A DNA stretch of 64,000 nt from Ignavibacteria bacterium UBA2373 (GTDB taxonomy: Bacteria; Bacteroidota; Ignavibacteria; Kapaibacteriales; UBA961): the NCBI GenBank assembly GCA_002344005.1, contig DDTD01000043.1, positions 1,746-65,745 of the forward strand, written 5' to 3'. Shown here one piece after another: positions 4,056 to 23,508 of the stretch; position 1 is the stretch's first letter, and the number at the start of each line of letters is the position of its first letter. The position numbers and the translations under genes were made by a program. A model generated the notes under the pieces. That model searched no databases and had not been told where the DNA came from. It saw nothing but the letters and a program-made list of their open reading frames with translations.

Positions 4056-5297
4056 ATGACAGATTTTATGTCCCCATCGGAAATGTTGAGCGCGTATATA
4101 GATGGCGAGCTTGATGAACAATCAACGTCGCTGTTGTTTTACACTATGGCGAATAATGTGGAGTTGCAACAAGAGATGCAACAACTAATGGCTATTCGTA
4201 CAGCGACATCGGCATCAGCAGTGCAAGTGCCCGCTCATTTGAAACAAGCAATTCTTGCCAAAACTATCGGTAAAGAACAAGAAGCGGTTGCAGCAGGGGG
4301 CATGACTCCTATGACAACCGCCGGATTGGTCATTAGTGCCGCTGCAATTGCATCATTGGCAACAGCATGGTTTCTTATTTCCGATTCATCGGACAATACA
4401 TATAATCATCATAATATGTCTTCTGCTCATACTGTAGAAGCTCACTCCCATCAAAAACCCGCCCTGTCCACCTCGCAGCAATCCGTAATACTTAATCAAG
4501 AAAAAATGTCTGAACCGACACAAACACAATATTCGCAGCATTATGGTTCCGTAGCGTCTTCTGCTTCACCCACACAATTATATTCTTCTGTTGATGCAAT
4601 AAAAGAAGAAGTGAGAAACAGTAATGTTGTTACTCCTTTGCAAACATTCGATGATAACAATACTGTTGCATTCATAGAGGAAAATGGAATGTACGCAGAA
4701 AGTGTTTCGCCTGCTATATTGCATTCCGTGCCTTTTGCTTTTCAATCACATACATTTGGGGTAAAGTCGCCATTATCTGCTATAAGTGCATTTGCTTCAC
4801 AAGAAGACAAGGGTGATTTCTCTGTGAGTGTTCGTGGGATGATGTCAAGTTCCTTGCAATCTTCTTCTTTATCGTTGCCAACCCAGCCACTTTATTCTGA
4901 TATGGGTATTGGTGTCTTCTATACTCTTGATGAAAGCAGTAAACTAGGCATTGAAGCCGGTTATGATCGCTGGACGCAAGTTTATGATGGAAAAGAAGGG
5001 GACACAAGCGTAAGATTTGAACAATATTATAATGCGCCGTGGGTAGGAGTTGCTTATCGTCATAGTGTTGCTCCTGTGGAATGGTTATCACATGCGAGTC
5101 CTTATATACAAGGGGGAATAGGAGTCACAGCGGTTGGTCCATTGGCACGTATAGCATTAGGATTGCAATATCCTCTTTTCCAATCTATTTCATTGAGTGC
5201 AGGCATTGAAGCTTCGGGATTGGCATATCAATATCAAGGAATGATCTTTTCTTCTCAAAGAGTTGCTTTTATTTCAACAGTATCTGTGGGTTTATGA
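4056..5297 (+). CDS. anti-sigma factor (N-terminal anti-sigma domain, one transmembrane segment, large C-terminal extracytoplasmic domain)
   Basis: It lies immediately downstream of the ECF sigma gene and has an AAGGA ribosome-binding site. The N-terminus (SAYIDGELDEQS) resembles RskA-like anti-sigma factors. It has one hydrophobic segment, and its C-terminal region has the alternating hydrophobic pattern of a beta-barrel. Confidence 0.6.
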   Translation: MTDFMSPSEMLSAYIDGELDEQSTSLLFYTMANNVELQQEMQQLMAIRTATSASAVQVPAHLKQAILAKTIGKEQEAVAAGGMTPMTTAGLVISAAAIASLATAWFLISDSSDNTYNHHNMSSAHTVEAHSHQKPALSTSQQSVILNQEKMSEPTQTQYSQHYGSVASSASPTQLYSSVDAIKEEVRNSNVVTPLQTFDDNNTVAFIEENGMYAESVSPAILHSVPFAFQSHTFGVKSPLSAISAFASQEDKGDFSVSVRGMMSSSLQSSSLSLPTQPLYSDMGIGVFYTLDESSKLGIEAGYDRWTQVYDGKEGDTSVRFEQYYNAPWVGVAYRHSVAPVEWLSHASPYIQGGIGVTAVGPLARIALGLQYPLFQSISLSAGIEASGLAYQYQGMIFSSQRVAFISTVSVGL

Positions 5298-17150: not shown

Positions 17151-17297
17151 GAGAGGCGAACCATTAAACAGTGAATAATGACATGGTTTTGCATCAATGG
17201 CATTATAAGTTTTGATATTGTTCTTATGAGAAAGGGGTCACTTGCCGCTTTCTTAATAATTTTGTAAAATTTTTTTCCTCACGTGCCCAAAGGGTAT

Positions 17298-20200
17298 TTT
17301 ATGAAAATGTTTCGATTATTTGTAAACGTTGCTTGCGCTGTATTGTGCGCAACGGTTACGCTTTTCTCTCAAACCAACCCCACGCCATATGATTTGTCAT
17401 TGGGTGATTATTCACTTTTGGCTTGGTCTCCGACAAATGCTGCGGGCGTTTATCCTCCGGGGATACGTTTCCATCGTACTGCGAATGGCAGTGCCGTTGA
17501 TCCCGGTTTAGCAGTGGAATTTACCACCGATTATACACTTGCCTATAACTTAACGGGCGGTGTACGTATCAATGGACTTGATAATGACGGATTCGGTATT
17601 GTCAATACCAGCAGCACAACAAATGGTCAACTTGGCGCAGCCGTCCTTGCACTCAATTGTGCAAATCGCTCGAATGTGACTGTGAGCTGGTTAGGTGGCA
17701 CTCTTACGCAAGGTGATGGTAATCCCACACCTCGTGAATATGCCATCCGTTTACAGTACCGCATTGGTACTACGGCGGCATGGACTGATGTGCCGGGACC
17801 AATCGAATATACCTCAGCCGGAAAAACAAATGGACATACACAAACATTCAGTACTGTATTGCCAATAGCAGTAAACAATGAACCCGTTGTGCAATTGCGT
17901 TGGAAATATTATTCGGCAGCAGCGAATAGCGGTGGTCAGCGTCCTCGCTTGCGTTTGGATGACATCGTCGTGACAAGTACTTCTGCATTTGGTACGCCCA
18001 CAGCATTGAAAATTACTTCCATCACCCCAAGCTCACCTTCTTCTACAAGCACATTCGCTGTGACTGTACAATCGGTGAATGCTTTGGGTAATCCTGTGAA
18101 TGTGCCAACGGAAACATCATTTTCTTTATCACGCTTTGCGGGTACGGGTACTTTAGCCGGAACATTAACAGGCACAATTCCGGCAAATCAAAATTCAGTA
18201 ATCGTCAGCGGGGTAAGTTATAATGTGGCGGAAAGTGGTGTGATTATTCTTGCTTCGCGTACTGCCGGTGAGTTATTGACTGATGGTCAAAGTGCCCCAT
18301 TTACAGTCACCCAAGGAGCAACGCAGACTGCTTTAATTGGCATTCAAACCAAAGGATATATTGGAAAAACATTTCAGACATTTACTGTTGAAGCACGCAG
18401 ACAAGATAATAGTGTTGATCCAAATTATACAGGTAATGTCACCGTCACCGTGGCAAGCGGTACAAATTCTGTTATCGGTACATTGACCAAACCATTAGTG
18501 AATGGAATTGCAACATTTAATGATATTCGTTTTTCTGCTGAGGGTACTTATACCTTACGCTTTTCAACAACAGGGTTAAGTTCCATAGACTCACCGCCCA
18601 TTACCATCAATCCTCGCATTACGATGCAAGATGTGCTCATTCCTCAAGTGGTAAAATCTACATCCAATTTGACTCGTGTGCCGGCATATGCTTTGGTACG
18701 TTTCGATAATCTCTTCCCCAATACGACATATCGTTTCATGACTTCGGGTTTAGAAAATCGTACTCTGATTACCTTTGGTGCAGGCAATAATCTCCATTAT
18801 TCTGCCGAAACCAATTCTTTCAATTATTCCTCCAATAAGACATTAACCTCTACATCCGTTCCGCCGGATTATTCAACCTTTATCACCGGTCCGGGTGAAA
18901 CATCCAAATCAGTTTGGATTAATATTCTCACAACAGGCAATACACGCTTTGCTGAAGGTAATTCTATGTGGTGGAGAGTCTTTTTATCGGATATTATTGG
19001 TGGCACACCCGATACATTAACCACAGTAGCTGCCAGCCGATGCGTTGAATTCGGTTCTTCAACCACACAAGCAACAGGTATTTTTGATTCGCAAAGTGGC
19101 GCTACTCCTAAAAACATTATCTGTCTCTATAATAATGAAGAGGGAACAGGTAATCCAGTGGCAACTGCATTGGTGCAAGATGACGGTACGGTGATTTTCC
19201 GCACTTTCGGTACAAATAATGTCGTAACAACCAAAGCCGTTGATTTTTATGAAGCATTAGATCAAGTCGCGGGAAGTTGGGTTACACTCATTCCCAATAA
19301 TTTAACAGGCGGCATTAAGCGCGTCGAAGAACGCCGCTTATCCGATGGTGAGATTGTACGTTTTTATACAGATGCCGATGGTGTATGGTCAACCGTTAAT
19401 ACTGTCAGAACATCATCCGGTATTACAGCTATTGATTTCCGCACGCCTCAATTGACCGTCACTTCGCCTACAGCAGGGCAGGCAATATGCGCACTCACCG
19501 ACCAACAAATTCGTTGGACTTCACGTGGTGTGAGCAATGTGAAAATTGATATTACACGCAATGGAACAGGATTCTCTCCCATTGTTGCTTCCACCGATGG
19601 ATTTGCTCAACTCTATGATTGGTTTATTACCCATGCAGAAAATGATGGCGCAACATATCAAGTGCGTGTTACCGACAATGAACATCCTATGGTGAGCGGT
19701 TTATCCCAACAATTCTCTATCACATTACCGCCTCGATTATTATTCCAGCCAATTTCACAAAACAAATGTATTGGCGACACTATTCTTTTGCGGGTTGGTA
19801 CCGAAGGAACAGCAACGGCATATCAATGGTTCAAAGATGGTCAGCCATTAACGGGCGCAACAACAAATGTTTTGCGTATCCTTTATGCAAGAGAAACCAA
19901 TACAGGAAAATATCAAGTCCGTGTCTCCGGTACATCCATCTGTGGCGATATATGGTCTGACACTGCAATCGTCTATGTCACTCCAGAGCTAACCATTCTC
20001 AAACAACCACAAGATGCTGTCGCACAATTGGGCAAAACACTTTCGCTTTCTGTGGAAGTCATGGGTACGGACAAACATAGATATCAATGGTTCAAAGGTA
20101 ATGTTGCCTTGCAGAACAGCACACGCATTTCCGGCGCACAAACCCCGAATTTGATTATCCGTGAGTTCAAAGCTACTGATAATGGCACTGACTATTTCTG

Positions 20201-21338
20201 CCGCATTTTTGCCGAAGGAAATTGCCAAATCAAAGATACTCGTCGCATTAATGTCGGTCCTTCATCCATTACTTTAGCAACGCAACCCGACACATTGGTT
20301 GCTGCATGCGAAGGGCTACCTTTCACCATGCGTGTTACCACCACTACCGTTCCTGCTGATTTACCATTGCGTTTCCGTTGGTTCAAAGGCAATACAGAAT
20401 TAACAGACGGTAATGGCATAACAGGTGCAACGACCAATACTATAGCATTTGCAAACTCATCCGCAGCAATCGCCGGAATTTATACCGTAAAAGTAGAAGC
20501 ATTATCAGGCAATGCCACAAATCAATCGCACAATATTCGTGTGGTGCTTGGCGATAAACCGCGTTTTATTATTCAGCCGCGTTCACGTGAGGTCTGTGCC
20601 GGAGAATTATTCGTTCTCAATGCCGACGCAATATCCAATTCGCTCATGGAATATCGCTGGATACGCAATGGAGTGCTTTTACCCGACAGAACAAATTCTT
20701 TTGCATTACAATTCGATACTGCCGGTCGCCAATACTTCTATCGTTGTATTGTCACAACCGAATGTGGAAGCGACACATCGGACTTATGCACAATCACAAC
20801 AACAGCATTGCCAACCATCACACAGCAACCGCCTAAAACATTGGCAATAGAGCAATCAAAATATGGTCGTTTGACAGTCGGTGCATTTGCCTCACGAGCA
20901 TTGCGCTATTCGTGGGTCAAAGACGGCAAAGCCATCGAAGGCAATAATTCTCCCGTTTTAGAAATTGCCATCGCAACCAAAAAAGATGAAGGCAAATATT
21001 GGGTGAATGTGATAGGGGATTGCGATACTCTAAGCAGCGACACAACCATCGTCACCGTCACTGCGCCATCATCGCTCAGCGAAGAAGAAACACAACGATT
21101 TGTCACGCTCTCGCCCAATCCGGCACATTCCTTTGTCACAGTATTCGTGAATCCATTGCTCAAACCATCCGCAATGCGTATCACTGATATGATTGGCAAA
21201 GAAATCATGCGCTTTGATGCTCAACAAATCAGCGAATCCATGCAAATAGATGTGCAGAACTTTATGTCCGGTCAATACTGGATTACCCTTCAATCCGACC
21301 AAGGCATACTTGTCTTGCCATTGCATATCATGAAATAA
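17298..21338 (+). CDS. very large secreted protein with about 5 Ig-like (I-set) domains and a T9SS type-A C-terminal sorting domain
   Basis: It has a signal peptide (MKMFRLFVNVACAVLCA) and repeated W/FKxG...GxYxVxV Ig-like modules. The C-terminus (LSPNPAHSFVTV...MSGQYWITLQSDQGILVLPLHIMK) matches the Por secretion-system C-terminal domain. The ORF track starts at GTG 17283. Confidence 0.75.
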   Translation, partial: FMKMFRLFVNVACAVLCATVTLFSQTNPTPYDLSLGDYSLLAWSPTNAAGVYPPGIRFHRTANGSAVDPGLAVEFTTDYTLAYNLTGGVRINGLDNDGFGIVNTSSTTNGQLGAAVLALNCANRSNVTVSWLGGTLTQGDGNPTPREYAIRLQYRIGTTAAWTDVPGPIEYTSAGKTNGHTQTFSTVLPIAVNNEPVVQLRWKYYSAAANSGGQRPRLRLDDIVVTSTSAFGTPTALKITSITPSSPSSTSTFAVTVQSVNALGNPVNVPTETSFSLSRFAGTGTLAGTLTGTIPANQNSVIVSGVSYNVAESGVIILASRTAGELLTDGQSAPFTVTQGATQTALIGIQTKGYIGKTFQTFTVEARRQDNSVDPNYTGNVTVTVASGTNSVIGTLTKPLVNGIATFNDIRFSAEGTYTLRFSTTGLSSIDSPPITINPRITMQDVLIPQVVKSTSNLTRVPAYALVRFDNLFPNTTYRFMTSGLENRTLITFGAGNNLHYSAETNSFNYSSNKTLTSTSVPPDYSTFITGPGETSKSVWINILTTGNTRFAEGNSMWWRVFLSDIIGGTPDTLTTVAASRCVEFGSSTTQATGIFDSQSGATPKNIICLYNNEEGTGNPVATALVQDDGTVIFRTFGTNNVVTTKAVDFYEALDQVAGSWVTLIPNNLTGGIKRVEERRLSDGEIVRFYTDADGVWSTVNTVRTSSGITAIDFRTPQLTVTSPTAGQAICALTDQQIRWTSRGVSNVKIDITRNGTGFSPIVASTDGFAQLYDWFITHAENDGATYQVRVTDNEHPMVSGLSQQFSITLPPRLLFQPISQNKCIGDTILLRVGTEGTATAYQWFKDGQPLTGATTNVLRILYARETNTGKYQVRVSGTSICGDIWSDTAIVYVTPELTILKQPQDAVAQLGKTLSLSVEVMGTDKHRYQWFKGNVALQNSTRISGAQTPNLIIREFKATDNGTDYFCRIFAEGNCQIKDTRRINVGPSSITLATQPDTLVAACEGLPFTMRVTTTTVPADLPLRFRWFKGNTELTDGNGITGATTNTIAFANSSAAIAGIYTVKVEALSGNATNQSHNIRVVLGDKPRFIIQPRSREVCAGELFVLNADAISNSLMEYRWIRNGVLLPDRTNSFALQFDTAGRQYFYRCIVTTECGSDTSDLCTITTTALPTITQQPPKTLAIEQSKYGRLTVGAFASRALRYSWVKDGKAIEGNNSPVLEIAIATKKDEGKYWVNVIGDCDTLSSDTTIVTVTAPSSLSEEETQRFVTLSPNPAHSFVTVFVNPLLKPSAMRITDMIGKEIMRFDAQQISESMQIDVQNFMSGQYWITLQSDQGILVLPLHIMK

Positions 21339-21365
21339 AACACTTAGCAAAACTCTCATAACAAA

Positions 21366-21400
21366 GCTCATTGTCACACAGGCAATGGGCTTTTTTATTT
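21366..21400 (+). terminator. rho-independent terminator of the T9SS cargo gene
   Basis: Stem gctcattg/caatgggc (with one U-G wobble pair) is followed by TTTTTTATTTT, 28 bp after the stop. Confidence 0.6.
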
Positions 21401-21414
21401 TGTAGCCACAGAAT

Positions 21415-22020
21415 TTCCCTCAAACCAACCACAAAGTATTCAATCCCGAAGGGATGATATAGTAATAGGAACAAGTCCATAGCAAAACCAAATCCCAACG
21501 GGATGACATACACAATGACTATACCGCTCCTTCGGAGCTACGGATACTTTCTCTGGCTTCATTGTCTATGAATATATCGCTCCTTCGGAGCTAATTCCAT
21601 CATCAACCAAAAACAATCGCCTTCCAACCACAAACCACAACCATCCAAAATTCCCCTCTTGAGGGGTGTCCGAAGGACGGGGTGGATAAACAAAACCGTA
21701 TCCATATTTCATTCAATCCCAACGAGATGATATAGTAATAGAAAACCACATTCTCCCCATCCAACCACATTTCATTCAATCACAACGGGATGATATAGTA
21801 ATAGAAAACCATATTATCCCCATCTAACCACATTTCATTCAATCCCGAAGGGATGATATAGTAATAGAAAATCATATTCCCTCAAACCAACCACAAAGTA
21901 TTCAATCCCGAAGGGATGATATAGTAATAGAAAACCATATTACCCCAAACCAACCACATTTCATTTAATCCCAACGGGATGACATAGTAATAGGGGAATC
22001 ATTGACAATTGACAATCAAC
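21415..22020. repeat. tandem array with an exact 63-bp period (5 complete units from 21706 to 22020, plus a 54-bp partial upstream copy), each unit carrying a GC-clamped triloop hairpin
   Basis: The unit consensus is atttcattcaatccc-RAN-gggatgatatagtaatagaaaaccatatt followed by a variable 14-16 nt tail (cc..aaccac). Unit starts are at 21706, 21769, 21832, 21895 and 21958. Sequence 21415-21468 is a perfect 54-bp copy of 21877-21930. Stop codons occur in all six reading frames. Confidence 0.85.
21469..21705. other. unique hairpin-rich segment embedded in the 63-bp array; candidate structured non-coding RNA (ncRNA)
   Basis: It carries two copies of GCTCC-TTC-GGAGC (21526-21538 and 21579-21591), a CCCCT-CTTG-AGGGG hairpin (21653-21666) and a GTCC-GAA-GGAC hairpin (21668-21678). 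It has no coding potential. Confidence 0.3.
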
Positions 22021-22248
22021 CTAAAAATACTATCTAACAAGCTAAAAATACTATCTAACAACCTAAAAATACTATCTAATAACCTAAAAACATAATCTAA
22101 TGACTTAAAAATATTATCTGACAAGCTAAAAATGTTATCCTATGACATAAAAACATAATCCAACAAGCTAAAAATGCTATCTGATGACCTAAAAATACTA
22201 TCTAATGAGCTAAAAATGCTATCTGACAACCTAAAAATGCTATCTGAC
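22021..22248. repeat. 11 tandem direct repeats with an exact 21-bp period (consensus ctaaaaatactatctaacaag), giving phased A5-6 tracts
   Basis: Unit starts are at 22021, 22042, 22063, 22084, 22105, 22126, 22147, 22168, 22189, 22210 and 22231. The array ends about 90 bp upstream of the start of the 22339 gene. Confidence 0.9.
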
Positions 22249-22338
22249 TTGTTGGAACATGATTTTTTTGTCTTAGAATTTGGTTTATTGTCTATTGTAT
22301 AGTATTTTTGCTTTATATATATTTCATTGAGGATTATT

Positions 22339-23508
22339 ATGGCTGATGTTAAACGTACATTTTCTATGCCCTATGCAGAATTAGTAAGCTTTGCTAATAT
22401 GTTATGTCAAAATTTGACGACAGATTTGGCTTTATTTGCTGATTATGGCGTGACTGCGCCTAAAATTGCTGCTTTGCAGGCATTGTCTGATGCTTTTGAG
22501 GCGTTCCCGTCGGATCAAACATTTGTGTATCAGATGATGATTGCCACTGAAGATAAAAATGCTAAACGTGATGAGCTTATTAAGCTGATTAAGTCTTTTG
22601 CGGTGAGGTTTGCGGCTGTGTTCGGGTTCGATAGTCCGCGTTATAAGGGCTTGAAAACAAGTAATATAGGGTTGCAAACGGATTTGAATGTGTTGGCTAC
22701 TGCTCGTTTTGTGGCGCAGGAGGCGGAAAGCTCTTTGGCGCAGCTTGCTTCGGAGGGCATAACGCAGGCAATGGTGGATAATTTTGTTGCCGAAGCGAAT
22801 GAGTTTGAGCAATTGATGTATGCACAAAAGTCGGCGAAGATGTTGCGCTCGGTGAAAACGGATGAACGCGCTACGAAGGGCAATGAAATTTATACTTTGA
22901 TTGTGAAATATTGTTCGTATGGCAAGCAAATTTTCGAGGCGGGCACTGCTAATTATGAAAAATATGTGATTACGGATAGTTATGTGCCGCAAACGCCTCC
23001 GCAAGCACCGGAAACGCTGTTTTATCAAAATGGCGAGCTTTCTTATAGCGAAAGTGATGGGGCATCGAGCTATAAAGTGGAGCGCAATCCCACTCCGACG
23101 GATGAAAATGCGTGGATTATTGTCTATGAGGGCGATGAAACGGAGGTTGCGGTTGGTCAAATTGGCGATGGTATGCGCATGAGGGTCTGGGCACGTAATG
23201 ATGCCGGCTTCTCGGTGAATCCAAGCTATTCGGTATATAGTGTTGTGTTTTTGAATGTGCCGAGTAATTTCCATTTTTCTGCCGGAACGCTGTATTGGGA
23301 TGCGGTTGATTGGGCTAATGGCTATGAATTTGAGTCTTCATTGAATCAAACAGAGTGGGAAGTGTTGAGCAATCAAAATGTGTTGGAATATACGCCTGTG
23401 CCGGGTTCGGGTATGGTGTATTATCGTGTGCGGGCAATGTATGGTAATGTGCATTCGGATTATGCTGCGGTGATTGGTATTGATTGGGGTAATGTGGTGA
23501 ATGGGTGA
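22339..23508 (+). CDS. hypothetical protein: N-terminal alpha-helical domain of about 220 aa plus two FN3-like domains; no signal peptide
   Basis: A GAGGA Shine-Dalgarno sequence lies 5 nt upstream of the ATG at 22339; the ORF track begins at 22327. FN3 hallmarks are present (YKVERNP...MRMRVWARN, and GYEFESS...MVYYRVRAMYGN). The coding strand is strongly G+T-rich. Confidence 0.6.
   Translation: MADVKRTFSMPYAELVSFANMLCQNLTTDLALFADYGVTAPKIAALQALSDAFEAFPSDQTFVYQMMIATEDKNAKRDELIKLIKSFAVRFAAVFGFDSPRYKGLKTSNIGLQTDLNVLATARFVAQEAESSLAQLASEGITQAMVDNFVAEANEFEQLMYAQKSAKMLRSVKTDERATKGNEIYTLIVKYCSYGKQIFEAGTANYEKYVITDSYVPQTPPQAPETLFYQNGELSYSESDGASSYKVERNPTPTDENAWIIVYEGDETEVAVGQIGDGMRMRVWARNDAGFSVNPSYSVYSVVFLNVPSNFHFSAGTLYWDAVDWANGYEFESSLNQTEWEVLSNQNVLEYTPVPGSGMVYYRVRAMYGNVHSDYAAVIGIDWGNVVNG

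Follow-up and report, generated by a model that had tools for sequence, protein, structure and literature searches.

Hairpin modules of a Bacteroidota intergenic island as a probable mosaic of dispersed REP-like repeats

BOX elements are modular repeats built from a few box types, one of which is repeated in tandem a variable number of times within a fixed A-B(n)-C order. Those of Streptococcus pneumoniae are intergenic and non-coding (PMC3049150). Short intergenic palindromic hairpins that occur in many copies and in either orientation are known from enterobacteria and pseudomonads as REPs, REPINs and BIMEs (PMC3733652); REPs are often paired as inverted copies, and BIMEs combine several module types into mosaics with stems that are kept by compensated changes. 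A 'CGTC'-tagged kind of REP, with a stem of 8-9 bp, a loop of 4-5 nt, a CCA tail and no dedicated transposase, has been described by Di Nocera et al. from several phyla, Bacteroidetes included (PMC3733652). BrickBuilt of Porphyromonas gingivalis is a MITE with an internal minisatellite made of a 23-nt unit of one sequence, and promoter activity has been reported for it (PMC4596501).

In a sequence-only reading, a 237-bp segment (21469-21705) of the 64-kb stretch of DNA analysed here, called the window throughout, had been described as a unique cluster of four GC-rich hairpins and as a candidate structured ncRNA. Comparison with other sequences removed the uniqueness: all four hairpins belong to repeat modules present in many other contigs. 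Since the modules recur between the genes of many related uncultured bacteria, the segment is better described as a REP/MITE-like repeat cluster than as a one-off structured RNA gene. It is probably a REP/BIME/BOX/MITE-like mosaic of non-autonomous dispersed palindromic repeats that act at the DNA level, within a repeat-rich intergenic island of a Bacteroidota chromosome.

Locus and module content

The window is a Bacteroidota chromosome segment, and the cluster lies in a 1000-bp intergenic region at 21339-22338. On its upstream side lies a plus-strand gene (17283-21338) for a 1351-aa protein that has Ig domains and a type IX secretion sorting tail, the downstream gene (22339-23508, plus strand) encodes a 389-aa protein that also occurs in the sludge MAG GCA_016713455.1 and in several metagenome assemblies, and the remaining neighbours are housekeeping genes. 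A strong intrinsic terminator with a 13-bp stem is located at 21363-21393, and the cluster follows just downstream with its plus strand shielded. A promoter scan of the intergenic region found a single Bacteroidetes-type promoter, that of the downstream gene (TATTTTTG at 22303, with TTTG located 20 nt before it); none was found in, or pointing into, the hairpin cluster. The intergenic region is base-for-base identical in four independent assemblies, whose contigs span it completely, and is therefore not an assembly artefact. The contigs of two close relatives (L016 and L017) are cut inside the repeats, and in more distant homologue loci the upstream repeats differ from those of the window. Six short-read contigs (L005-L010, left ends at about window 21905) stop 434 nt upstream of the 389-aa gene, within the 63-bp array, indicating that the repeats break short-read assemblies of this organism at this place; the repeat-cluster reading thus also explains these breaks.

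The four hairpins of the sequence-only reading were recovered as described. The window has exactly two copies of GCTCCTTCGGAGC (GCTCC-TTC-GGAGC), 53 nt apart, at 21526-21538 and 21579-21591; CCCCTCTTGAGGGG (CCCCT-CTTG-AGGGG) is found at 21653-21666 and GTCCGAAGGAC (GTCC-GAA-GGAC) at 21669-21679. A fifth hairpin, ATCCCAACGGGAT, lies at 21492-21504. Counting only perfect hairpins with a stem of at least 4 bp, at least 3 GC pairs and a loop of 3-4 nt, the segment holds 5 against a mean of 0.22 over 1276 windows of 237 bp, a count reached nowhere else in the 64 kb. Its composition is 45.6% GC and 61.6% A+C (whole window, 38.2% GC), and no ORF longer than 58 aa crosses it, in agreement with the A+C-rich plus strand and the absence of coding potential described earlier. 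The layout agrees with the earlier claim that the segment interrupts an array, with array-like sequence before ~21472 and again from ~21703. The "partial unit" placed upstream was inexact: the array unit there (21415-21471) is complete and shares 98% identity with that at 21877-21933.

The modules were delimited with two covariance models, R1 for the C module (46 copies in other contigs, none from the window) and R2 for the A-type module (59 foreign copies, window left out). The features are as follows.

21437-21475, plus strand: A1, an A-type module with hairpin ATCCC-GAA-GGGAT at 21443-21455 and tail GATATAGTAATAG (R2 37.2 bits, E 8e-5)
21486-21524 (outer limits approximate), plus strand: A2, an A-type module with hairpin ATCCC-AAC-GGGAT at 21492-21504 and a degenerate tail
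21506-21544, minus strand: A'1, of the GCTCC subfamily, GCTCC-GAA-GGAGC then GGTATAGTCAT, exact hairpin at 21526-21538
21559-21597, minus strand: A'2, of the GCTCC subfamily, GCTCC-GAA-GGAGC then GATATATTCATAG, hairpin at 21579-21591 (R2 34.7 bits, E 2.4e-4, full length)
21598-21644, minus strand: linker of a direct repeat family, G/T-rich on the minus and A/C-rich on the plus strand, minus-strand reading TTTTGGATGGTTGTGGTTTGTGGTTGG...
21645-21687, minus strand: bipartite C module, ATCCACCCCG-[TCC-TTC-GGA]-CACCCCTCAAGAGGGGAATTTTGG (R1 52.3 bits, E 7.1e-11, full model length)
21710-22000, plus strand: 63-bp array of five tandem A-type modules (Tandem Repeats Finder, period 63, 4.6 copies)
22017-22245, no strand: 21-bp tandem array that separates the hairpin modules from the promoter of the 389-aa gene (Tandem Repeats Finder, 10.9 copies)

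The segment contains one C and two GCTCC-type modules on the minus strand and one further ATCCC-type module on the plus strand, and the flanking ATCCC-type array units are opposite to the GCTCC copies. R2 matched six plus-strand copies in the window (21437, 21710, 21773, 21836, 21899 and 21962), the five in the array at 27.5-46.3 bits, as well as the minus-strand copy at 21559-21597. A2 was called from a pattern match with 1 mismatch and a partial R2 match of 16 bits at 21492-21510, and starts 49 nt after A1, as in 10 composites elsewhere. A'1 was delimited on the model of A'2, at a distance of 53 nt; its flank matches the array unit core in reverse complement, and it gave a weak partial R2 match (14.2 bits, 21518-21538, minus strand). 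Each GCTCC hairpin, taken together with its 5' flank (CTATGAATATATC-GCTCCTTCGGAGC), reads as the reverse complement of the 63-bp unit core (ATCCCGAAGGGAT-GATATAGTAATAG) with the stem changed at three positions, all compensated. By eye, the linker is similar to TGGTGATGGTTGG, found after bipartite modules elsewhere, and to the linker CCAACCAC in the 63-bp units.

Stems of the ATCCC/GGGAT type were found 71 times in other contigs and those of the GCTCC/GGAGC type 15 times. In a scan of 185,579 species representatives, the exact array-unit core pattern was present in only 2 contigs, both of one sludge MAG, which indicates that the A-type family is narrow. In one of these contigs (L032), an unrelated intergenic region contains ATCCC-type hairpins in forward and GCTCC-type hairpins in inverted orientation, and the contig also has two copies of CCACCCCGTCGCTTCGCGCCACCCCTCGATGAGGGGAATTTTTGG. 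L011, a relative at 84% protein identity, has a single forward ATCCC module at 4137-4175, the sole R2 match there, and at 4263-4410 a repeat of ~63 bp in the opposite orientation, with two complete copies and one truncated, that carries a third compensated stem type, GTTCC-TAC-GGAAC. The distant homologue loci L012, L021, L025 and L029 gave no A or C module matches. Another locus (L066 1378-1896) contains a 63-bp tandem array of 8.2 copies, unrelated in sequence to the 63-bp unit of the window. A coding role of the 63-bp and 21-bp units was considered and set aside: some frames are open, but single units repeatedly contain stops and the frame is not conserved in relatives.

The A-type modules form a composite of two ATCCC hairpins followed by two GCTCC hairpins, starting at 21443, 21492, 21526 and 21579 (spacings 49/34/53), in which the outer pair (A1 and A'2) and the inner pair (A2 and A'1) are inverted copies. 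The composite recurs with spacings of 49-51/33-34/52-53 in at least 10 distinct copies from sludge metagenome contigs (L049, L063, L097, L103, L109, L128), and the window is colinear with other composites over about 165 nt. In the loci and the window combined, 12 of 14 distinct GCTCC pairs are 53 nt apart, so the spacing noted earlier between the two identical hairpins is a trait of the family. In one contig (L049 13-791) the composite together with a C module is itself tandemly repeated, with a period of 276 bp, 2.8 copies and 97% matches. A1 is both the upstream array unit and the first hairpin of the composite, and it aligns colinearly with the composites in L109 and L049. From ~21472 to ~21702 the window follows the composite-plus-C layout of other contigs. 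This layout, the 98% identity of the array units on both sides and the resumption of the array at ~21703 suggest that the locus arose when an array unit recombined with the first hairpin of a composite.

The reverse complement of 21640-21682 reads CCACCCCGTCCTTCGGACACCCCTCAAGAGGGGAATTTTGG, and the GTCC-GAA-GGAC and CCCCT-CTTG-AGGGG hairpins are therefore the two parts of one C module, the only significant R1 match in the 64 kb. A metagenome scan for CACCCCTCNNNGAGGGGAATTTT returned at least 117 stretches from many samples, and the fetched loci, 577 kb in all, contain 195 R1 matches, as many as about 9 of them within a single 14-kb locus. Among the matches listed, the consensus is TCCACCCCG-[variable hairpin]-CACCCCTC-AAN-GAGGGG-AATTTT, more than 50 different inserts occur, almost always self-complementary, and most copies have CGTC before and CCA after the variable hairpin. 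Relative to genes, C modules are found in both orientations: among the same listed matches, 39 copies have the orientation of the ORF on their 5' side and 43 the opposite one. Among them, too, 106 of 122 copies lie outside long ORFs, and all-against-all clustering of 830 ORFs from about 120 loci found no protein family that recurs beside the modules.

Comparisons of the intergenic region and the C consensus with phage and plasmid collections by blastn gave no match, and IMG/VR pattern scans gave 0 matches; a phage or plasmid origin was dropped on these results. A replication origin or partition site, with the 21-bp array as iteron-like and the 63-bp array as sopC-like repeats, was dropped because the neighbours are ordinary chromosomal genes and the modules are dispersed. 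A literature search with the sequence string returned nothing relevant.

Comparison with described repeat elements

As in REPs, REPINs and BIMEs (PMC3733652), the modules are short intergenic palindromic hairpins with many copies in either orientation, and the 13-nt A hairpins and the first helix of C are palindromic units with a stem kept across copies. A2 and A'1 stand tail to tail, 21 nt apart, in the manner of paired inverted REPs, and the combination of several module types into mosaics, with compensated stems, is that of BIMEs. The C module further resembles the CGTC REPs in its CGTC before the variable hairpin and in the CCA that usually follows; those REPs also have no dedicated transposase (PMC3733652). 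It differs from them in that stems here are 3-6 bp and loops 3 nt, and in that the last C of CGTC usually pairs and is not part of a free tag; on these grounds the C module falls outside the CGTC family as defined. The A-type modules have neither GTAG nor CGTC next to the stem, so that an unpaired tag combined with the described stem and loop sizes was found in neither C nor A. Also unlike REPs, long conserved unpaired parts are present (CCACCCC twice; GAYATAGTAATAG), and no RAYT gene was seen, either among 20 scanned window ORFs or as a family recurring beside the modules in about 120 loci. We class the hairpin modules as a new family of REP-like kind that belongs to no named family.

BOX elements, like the island described here, are intergenic and non-coding and have a modular build with one tandemly repeated module. 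They come from another phylum and have no sequence relation to the present modules, whose order and orientation vary between copies. BrickBuilt (PMC4596501) shares with the island its place in Bacteroidota intergenic DNA and the joining of small end pieces, which are inverted repeats, to an array of tandem units of about 20 bp. Its array has a single 23-nt unit, whereas the arrays here are strictly 21 bp with many unrelated unit sequences; BrickBuilt is moreover one element, while the arrays and hairpin modules here are known from co-occurrence and not from joint movement.

Stem conservation and alternative explanations

The modules keep their hairpins by compensatory changes. All four Watson-Crick pair types occur at three positions of C helix 1, with 163 double-change cells against 54 in shuffles and a covariation score of 0.227 against no more than 0.054 in every slid control. 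C helix 2 is invariant among the top 150 matches, an indication of sequence conservation and not of covariation. In the A stem 98.2% of cells pair, and the ATCCC/GGGAT and GCTCC/GGAGC types differ by three compensated pairs, although with just two states these may reflect few evolutionary events. The loop on the tail-carrying strand of A is GNA in 66 of 98 distinct copies and TNC in none; the asymmetry between G-T and A-C mismatches, a test for the folded strand, was 3 to 0, too few cases to read. Compensatory change among related copies, which the sequence-only reading had named as a check on its ncRNA proposal, is therefore positive at the level of the family for the A stem and for C helix 1. 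Such covariation is equally expected of a functional RNA. Stability, which had been taken as an ncRNA signature, gave weak thermodynamic support: the RNA fold z-scores of the segment are -2.5 on the plus and -0.16 on the minus strand, and the single hairpins are modestly stable, at -3 to -6.5 kcal/mol as DNA.

It is decidedly unlikely that the cluster or its modules act as RNA, either as a small RNA gene or as 3' UTR hairpins that stop or stabilise transcripts, as shown for some REPs. The second C hairpin is followed by AATTTT(T), and a scan called it terminator-like on the minus strand; however, the window copy of C and the GCTCC modules occupy the minus strand, and since the first gene to their right is a plus-strand one, no gene of their own strand precedes them. 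Among the matches listed C lies with or against the upstream gene about equally (39 and 43), which is unlike an intrinsic terminator. Compensated stems and the plus-strand fold z-score would suit an RNA. The ATCCC modules, on the plus strand, sit behind the 13-bp-stem terminator, and the cluster has no Bacteroidetes-type promoter. Di Nocera et al. (PMC3733652) argue for transcription of many REPs and for a possible action as RNA. Both module orientations are mixed in this one cluster, and the fold z-score on the minus strand is -0.16. A search of Rfam 15, likewise named as a check on the ncRNA proposal, gave no match at gathering score in the window and chance-level matches only at E up to 10, and none for the modules in ten module-rich loci. 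Of the proposed structured ncRNA, then, the hairpins are real and their stems compensated; the cluster itself is a recurring module mosaic on mixed strands, with no orientation bias, no promoter or terminator of its own on a constant strand and no curated RNA family. Balanced orientation, mixed strands, the terminator, and the promoter, protein and database negatives together lead us to favour a DNA-level repeat family over an RNA gene.

The palindromic 13-mers might instead be sites for a dimeric DNA-binding protein, phased on one helix face (63 bp being about six turns and 21 bp about two), with the cluster and both arrays forming the control region of the 389-aa helical/Fn3 gene. The position of the island directly upstream of the sole predicted promoter fits this arrangement, as do the 21-bp array upstream in every homologue locus examined, including L126, which was fetched by its C module alone and has four such arrays just before the homologue, and the hairpin units that are also upstream in L011. 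The same modules, however, are found in many intergenic regions with unrelated neighbours and gave no matches in the distant homologue loci L012, L021, L025 and L029, and a protein that reads sequence predicts neither compensated stem changes nor a freely variable stem. We consider this explanation very unlikely. A decayed CRISPR-like array, suggested by the look of the 63-bp unit alone (its reverse complement, GTTTTC...ATCCCTTCGGGATTGAAT, resembles a repeat with hairpin and handle), has next to no likelihood: the "spacers" between hairpins are near-identical to one another where unique ones would be expected, which refutes it, no cas gene or cas domain was seen among annotated and scanned neighbours, and elsewhere the hairpin is found as a single copy and in either orientation.

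Under the preferred reading of a DNA-level repeat mosaic, the modules would be copied and rearranged as DNA, probably acting as single-strand hairpins for an enzyme whose gene lies in another part of the genome and which recognises them, and homologous recombination among copies would join them into mosaics and tandem arrays. Effects on neighbouring genes, such as on transcript ends or on DNA structure upstream of the promoter at ~22303, would be a by-product and not the reason for the sequence. The C module joins invariant sequence blocks to a freely covarying hairpin, the signature expected for recognition of folded single-strand DNA. We know of no enzyme that recognises the folded C module. 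The 'CGTC' REPs share this gap (PMC3733652). The evidence for many copies comes from other contigs, as the 64-kb window has one module cluster only. No mobilising enzyme was found at the modules, and a Pfam scan of 20 window ORFs found no transposase among them. Near-identical contigs, when compared, showed no presence/absence polymorphism of modules and no target-site duplication; they differ by array copy number and by swaps of unrelated cassettes, with no clean module insertion. If the repeat reading is correct, a false ncRNA candidate is removed from annotation and repeat biology gains a well-defined modular hairpin family from uncultured Bacteroidota, and R1 and R2 can be used to count the modules in complete genomes.

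In one pair of contigs, 666 bp (L042 3363-4030) and 965 bp (L142 3294-4260) of unrelated sequence are swapped between flanks that are 99.6-99.9% identical. The swapped cassette is unrelated to the hairpin modules.

The 21-bp arrays and the 389-aa protein

Arrays of 21-bp units lie near module clusters in 17 other loci (L052, L062, L082, L085, L095, L103, L106, L107, L109, L112, L114, L121, L126, L127, L128, L136 and L137). In the loci fetched by the C module, 43 of 51 tandem-repeat rows have a period of 21, 42, 63 or 84, with unrelated unit sequences. The median distance from an array to the nearest module is 235 bp, against 930 bp under random placement, a proximity that may be due in part to both being intergenic. 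The flanks of two loci (L082 13080-13560 and L085 3510-4290) are 99.3% identical and only two adjacent 21-bp arrays differ, by ~3 and ~14 units in copy number, so that the 21-bp arrays behave as variable-number tandem repeats. The period is strictly 21 bp, a length of two helical turns or seven codons.

At each locus examined for a homologue of the 389-aa protein, to about 30% identity, a 21-bp array lies just upstream of the gene, with largely unrelated units.

L011, 4429-4718: 21-bp array
L012, 4-300: 21-bp array
L016, 109-354: 21-bp array
L021, 77-282: 21-bp array
L026, 1-279: 21-bp array
L029, 3225-3446: 21-bp array
L126, 11707-12430: 21-bp arrays (four), before a homologue with 29% identity over 207 aa (E 1e-16)

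No Pfam family matches the 389-aa protein. Structure prediction (mean pLDDT 85.5) gave an all-helical domain at about residues 12-207 followed by two Fn3-like domains, and structural neighbours were found for the Fn3 part only; the prediction was uninformative on the hairpins. Among 5.8 billion proteins 18 relatives were found, in different gene neighbourhoods. Compared with the gene of a close strain (L016 448-1617), identity is 78-80% over nt 117-468 and 93-100% elsewhere, which appears as a localised hypervariable stretch in the predicted N-terminal helical domain.

A tentative reading, which we consider rather unlikely, is that the hairpin modules and the strictly 21-bp arrays together make up a so far undescribed type of composite island between the genes of sludge Bacteroidota. 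The dominance of period 21, the unrelated units, the change in copy number, the proximity to modules and the place before homologues of the hypervariable helical/Fn3 protein point in this direction. If true, such an island could be a structure-based switch or a variation system and not junk repeats. The link of strain-variable 21-bp arrays to a position upstream of a variable surface-type protein is a side observation that may matter more than the hairpins themselves.

On the plus strand of the window at 22009-22302, one frame of the array reads LK(I/M)LS(D/N)x heptads with a hydrophobic tail, including a 42-aa ORF at 22174-22302. This frame has two in-frame TAA stops in the window and is open in L016 178-411, with a 77-aa gene call there; stops are present in both of the plus-strand frames read in L011. 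The stops in the window and in L011 make coding by the 21-bp array doubtful. Further tandem repeats are found downstream of the homologous gene, at L011 6000-6530 and L013 1378-1447 (15-bp GAACCCACGACCGTT and a 74-bp unit).
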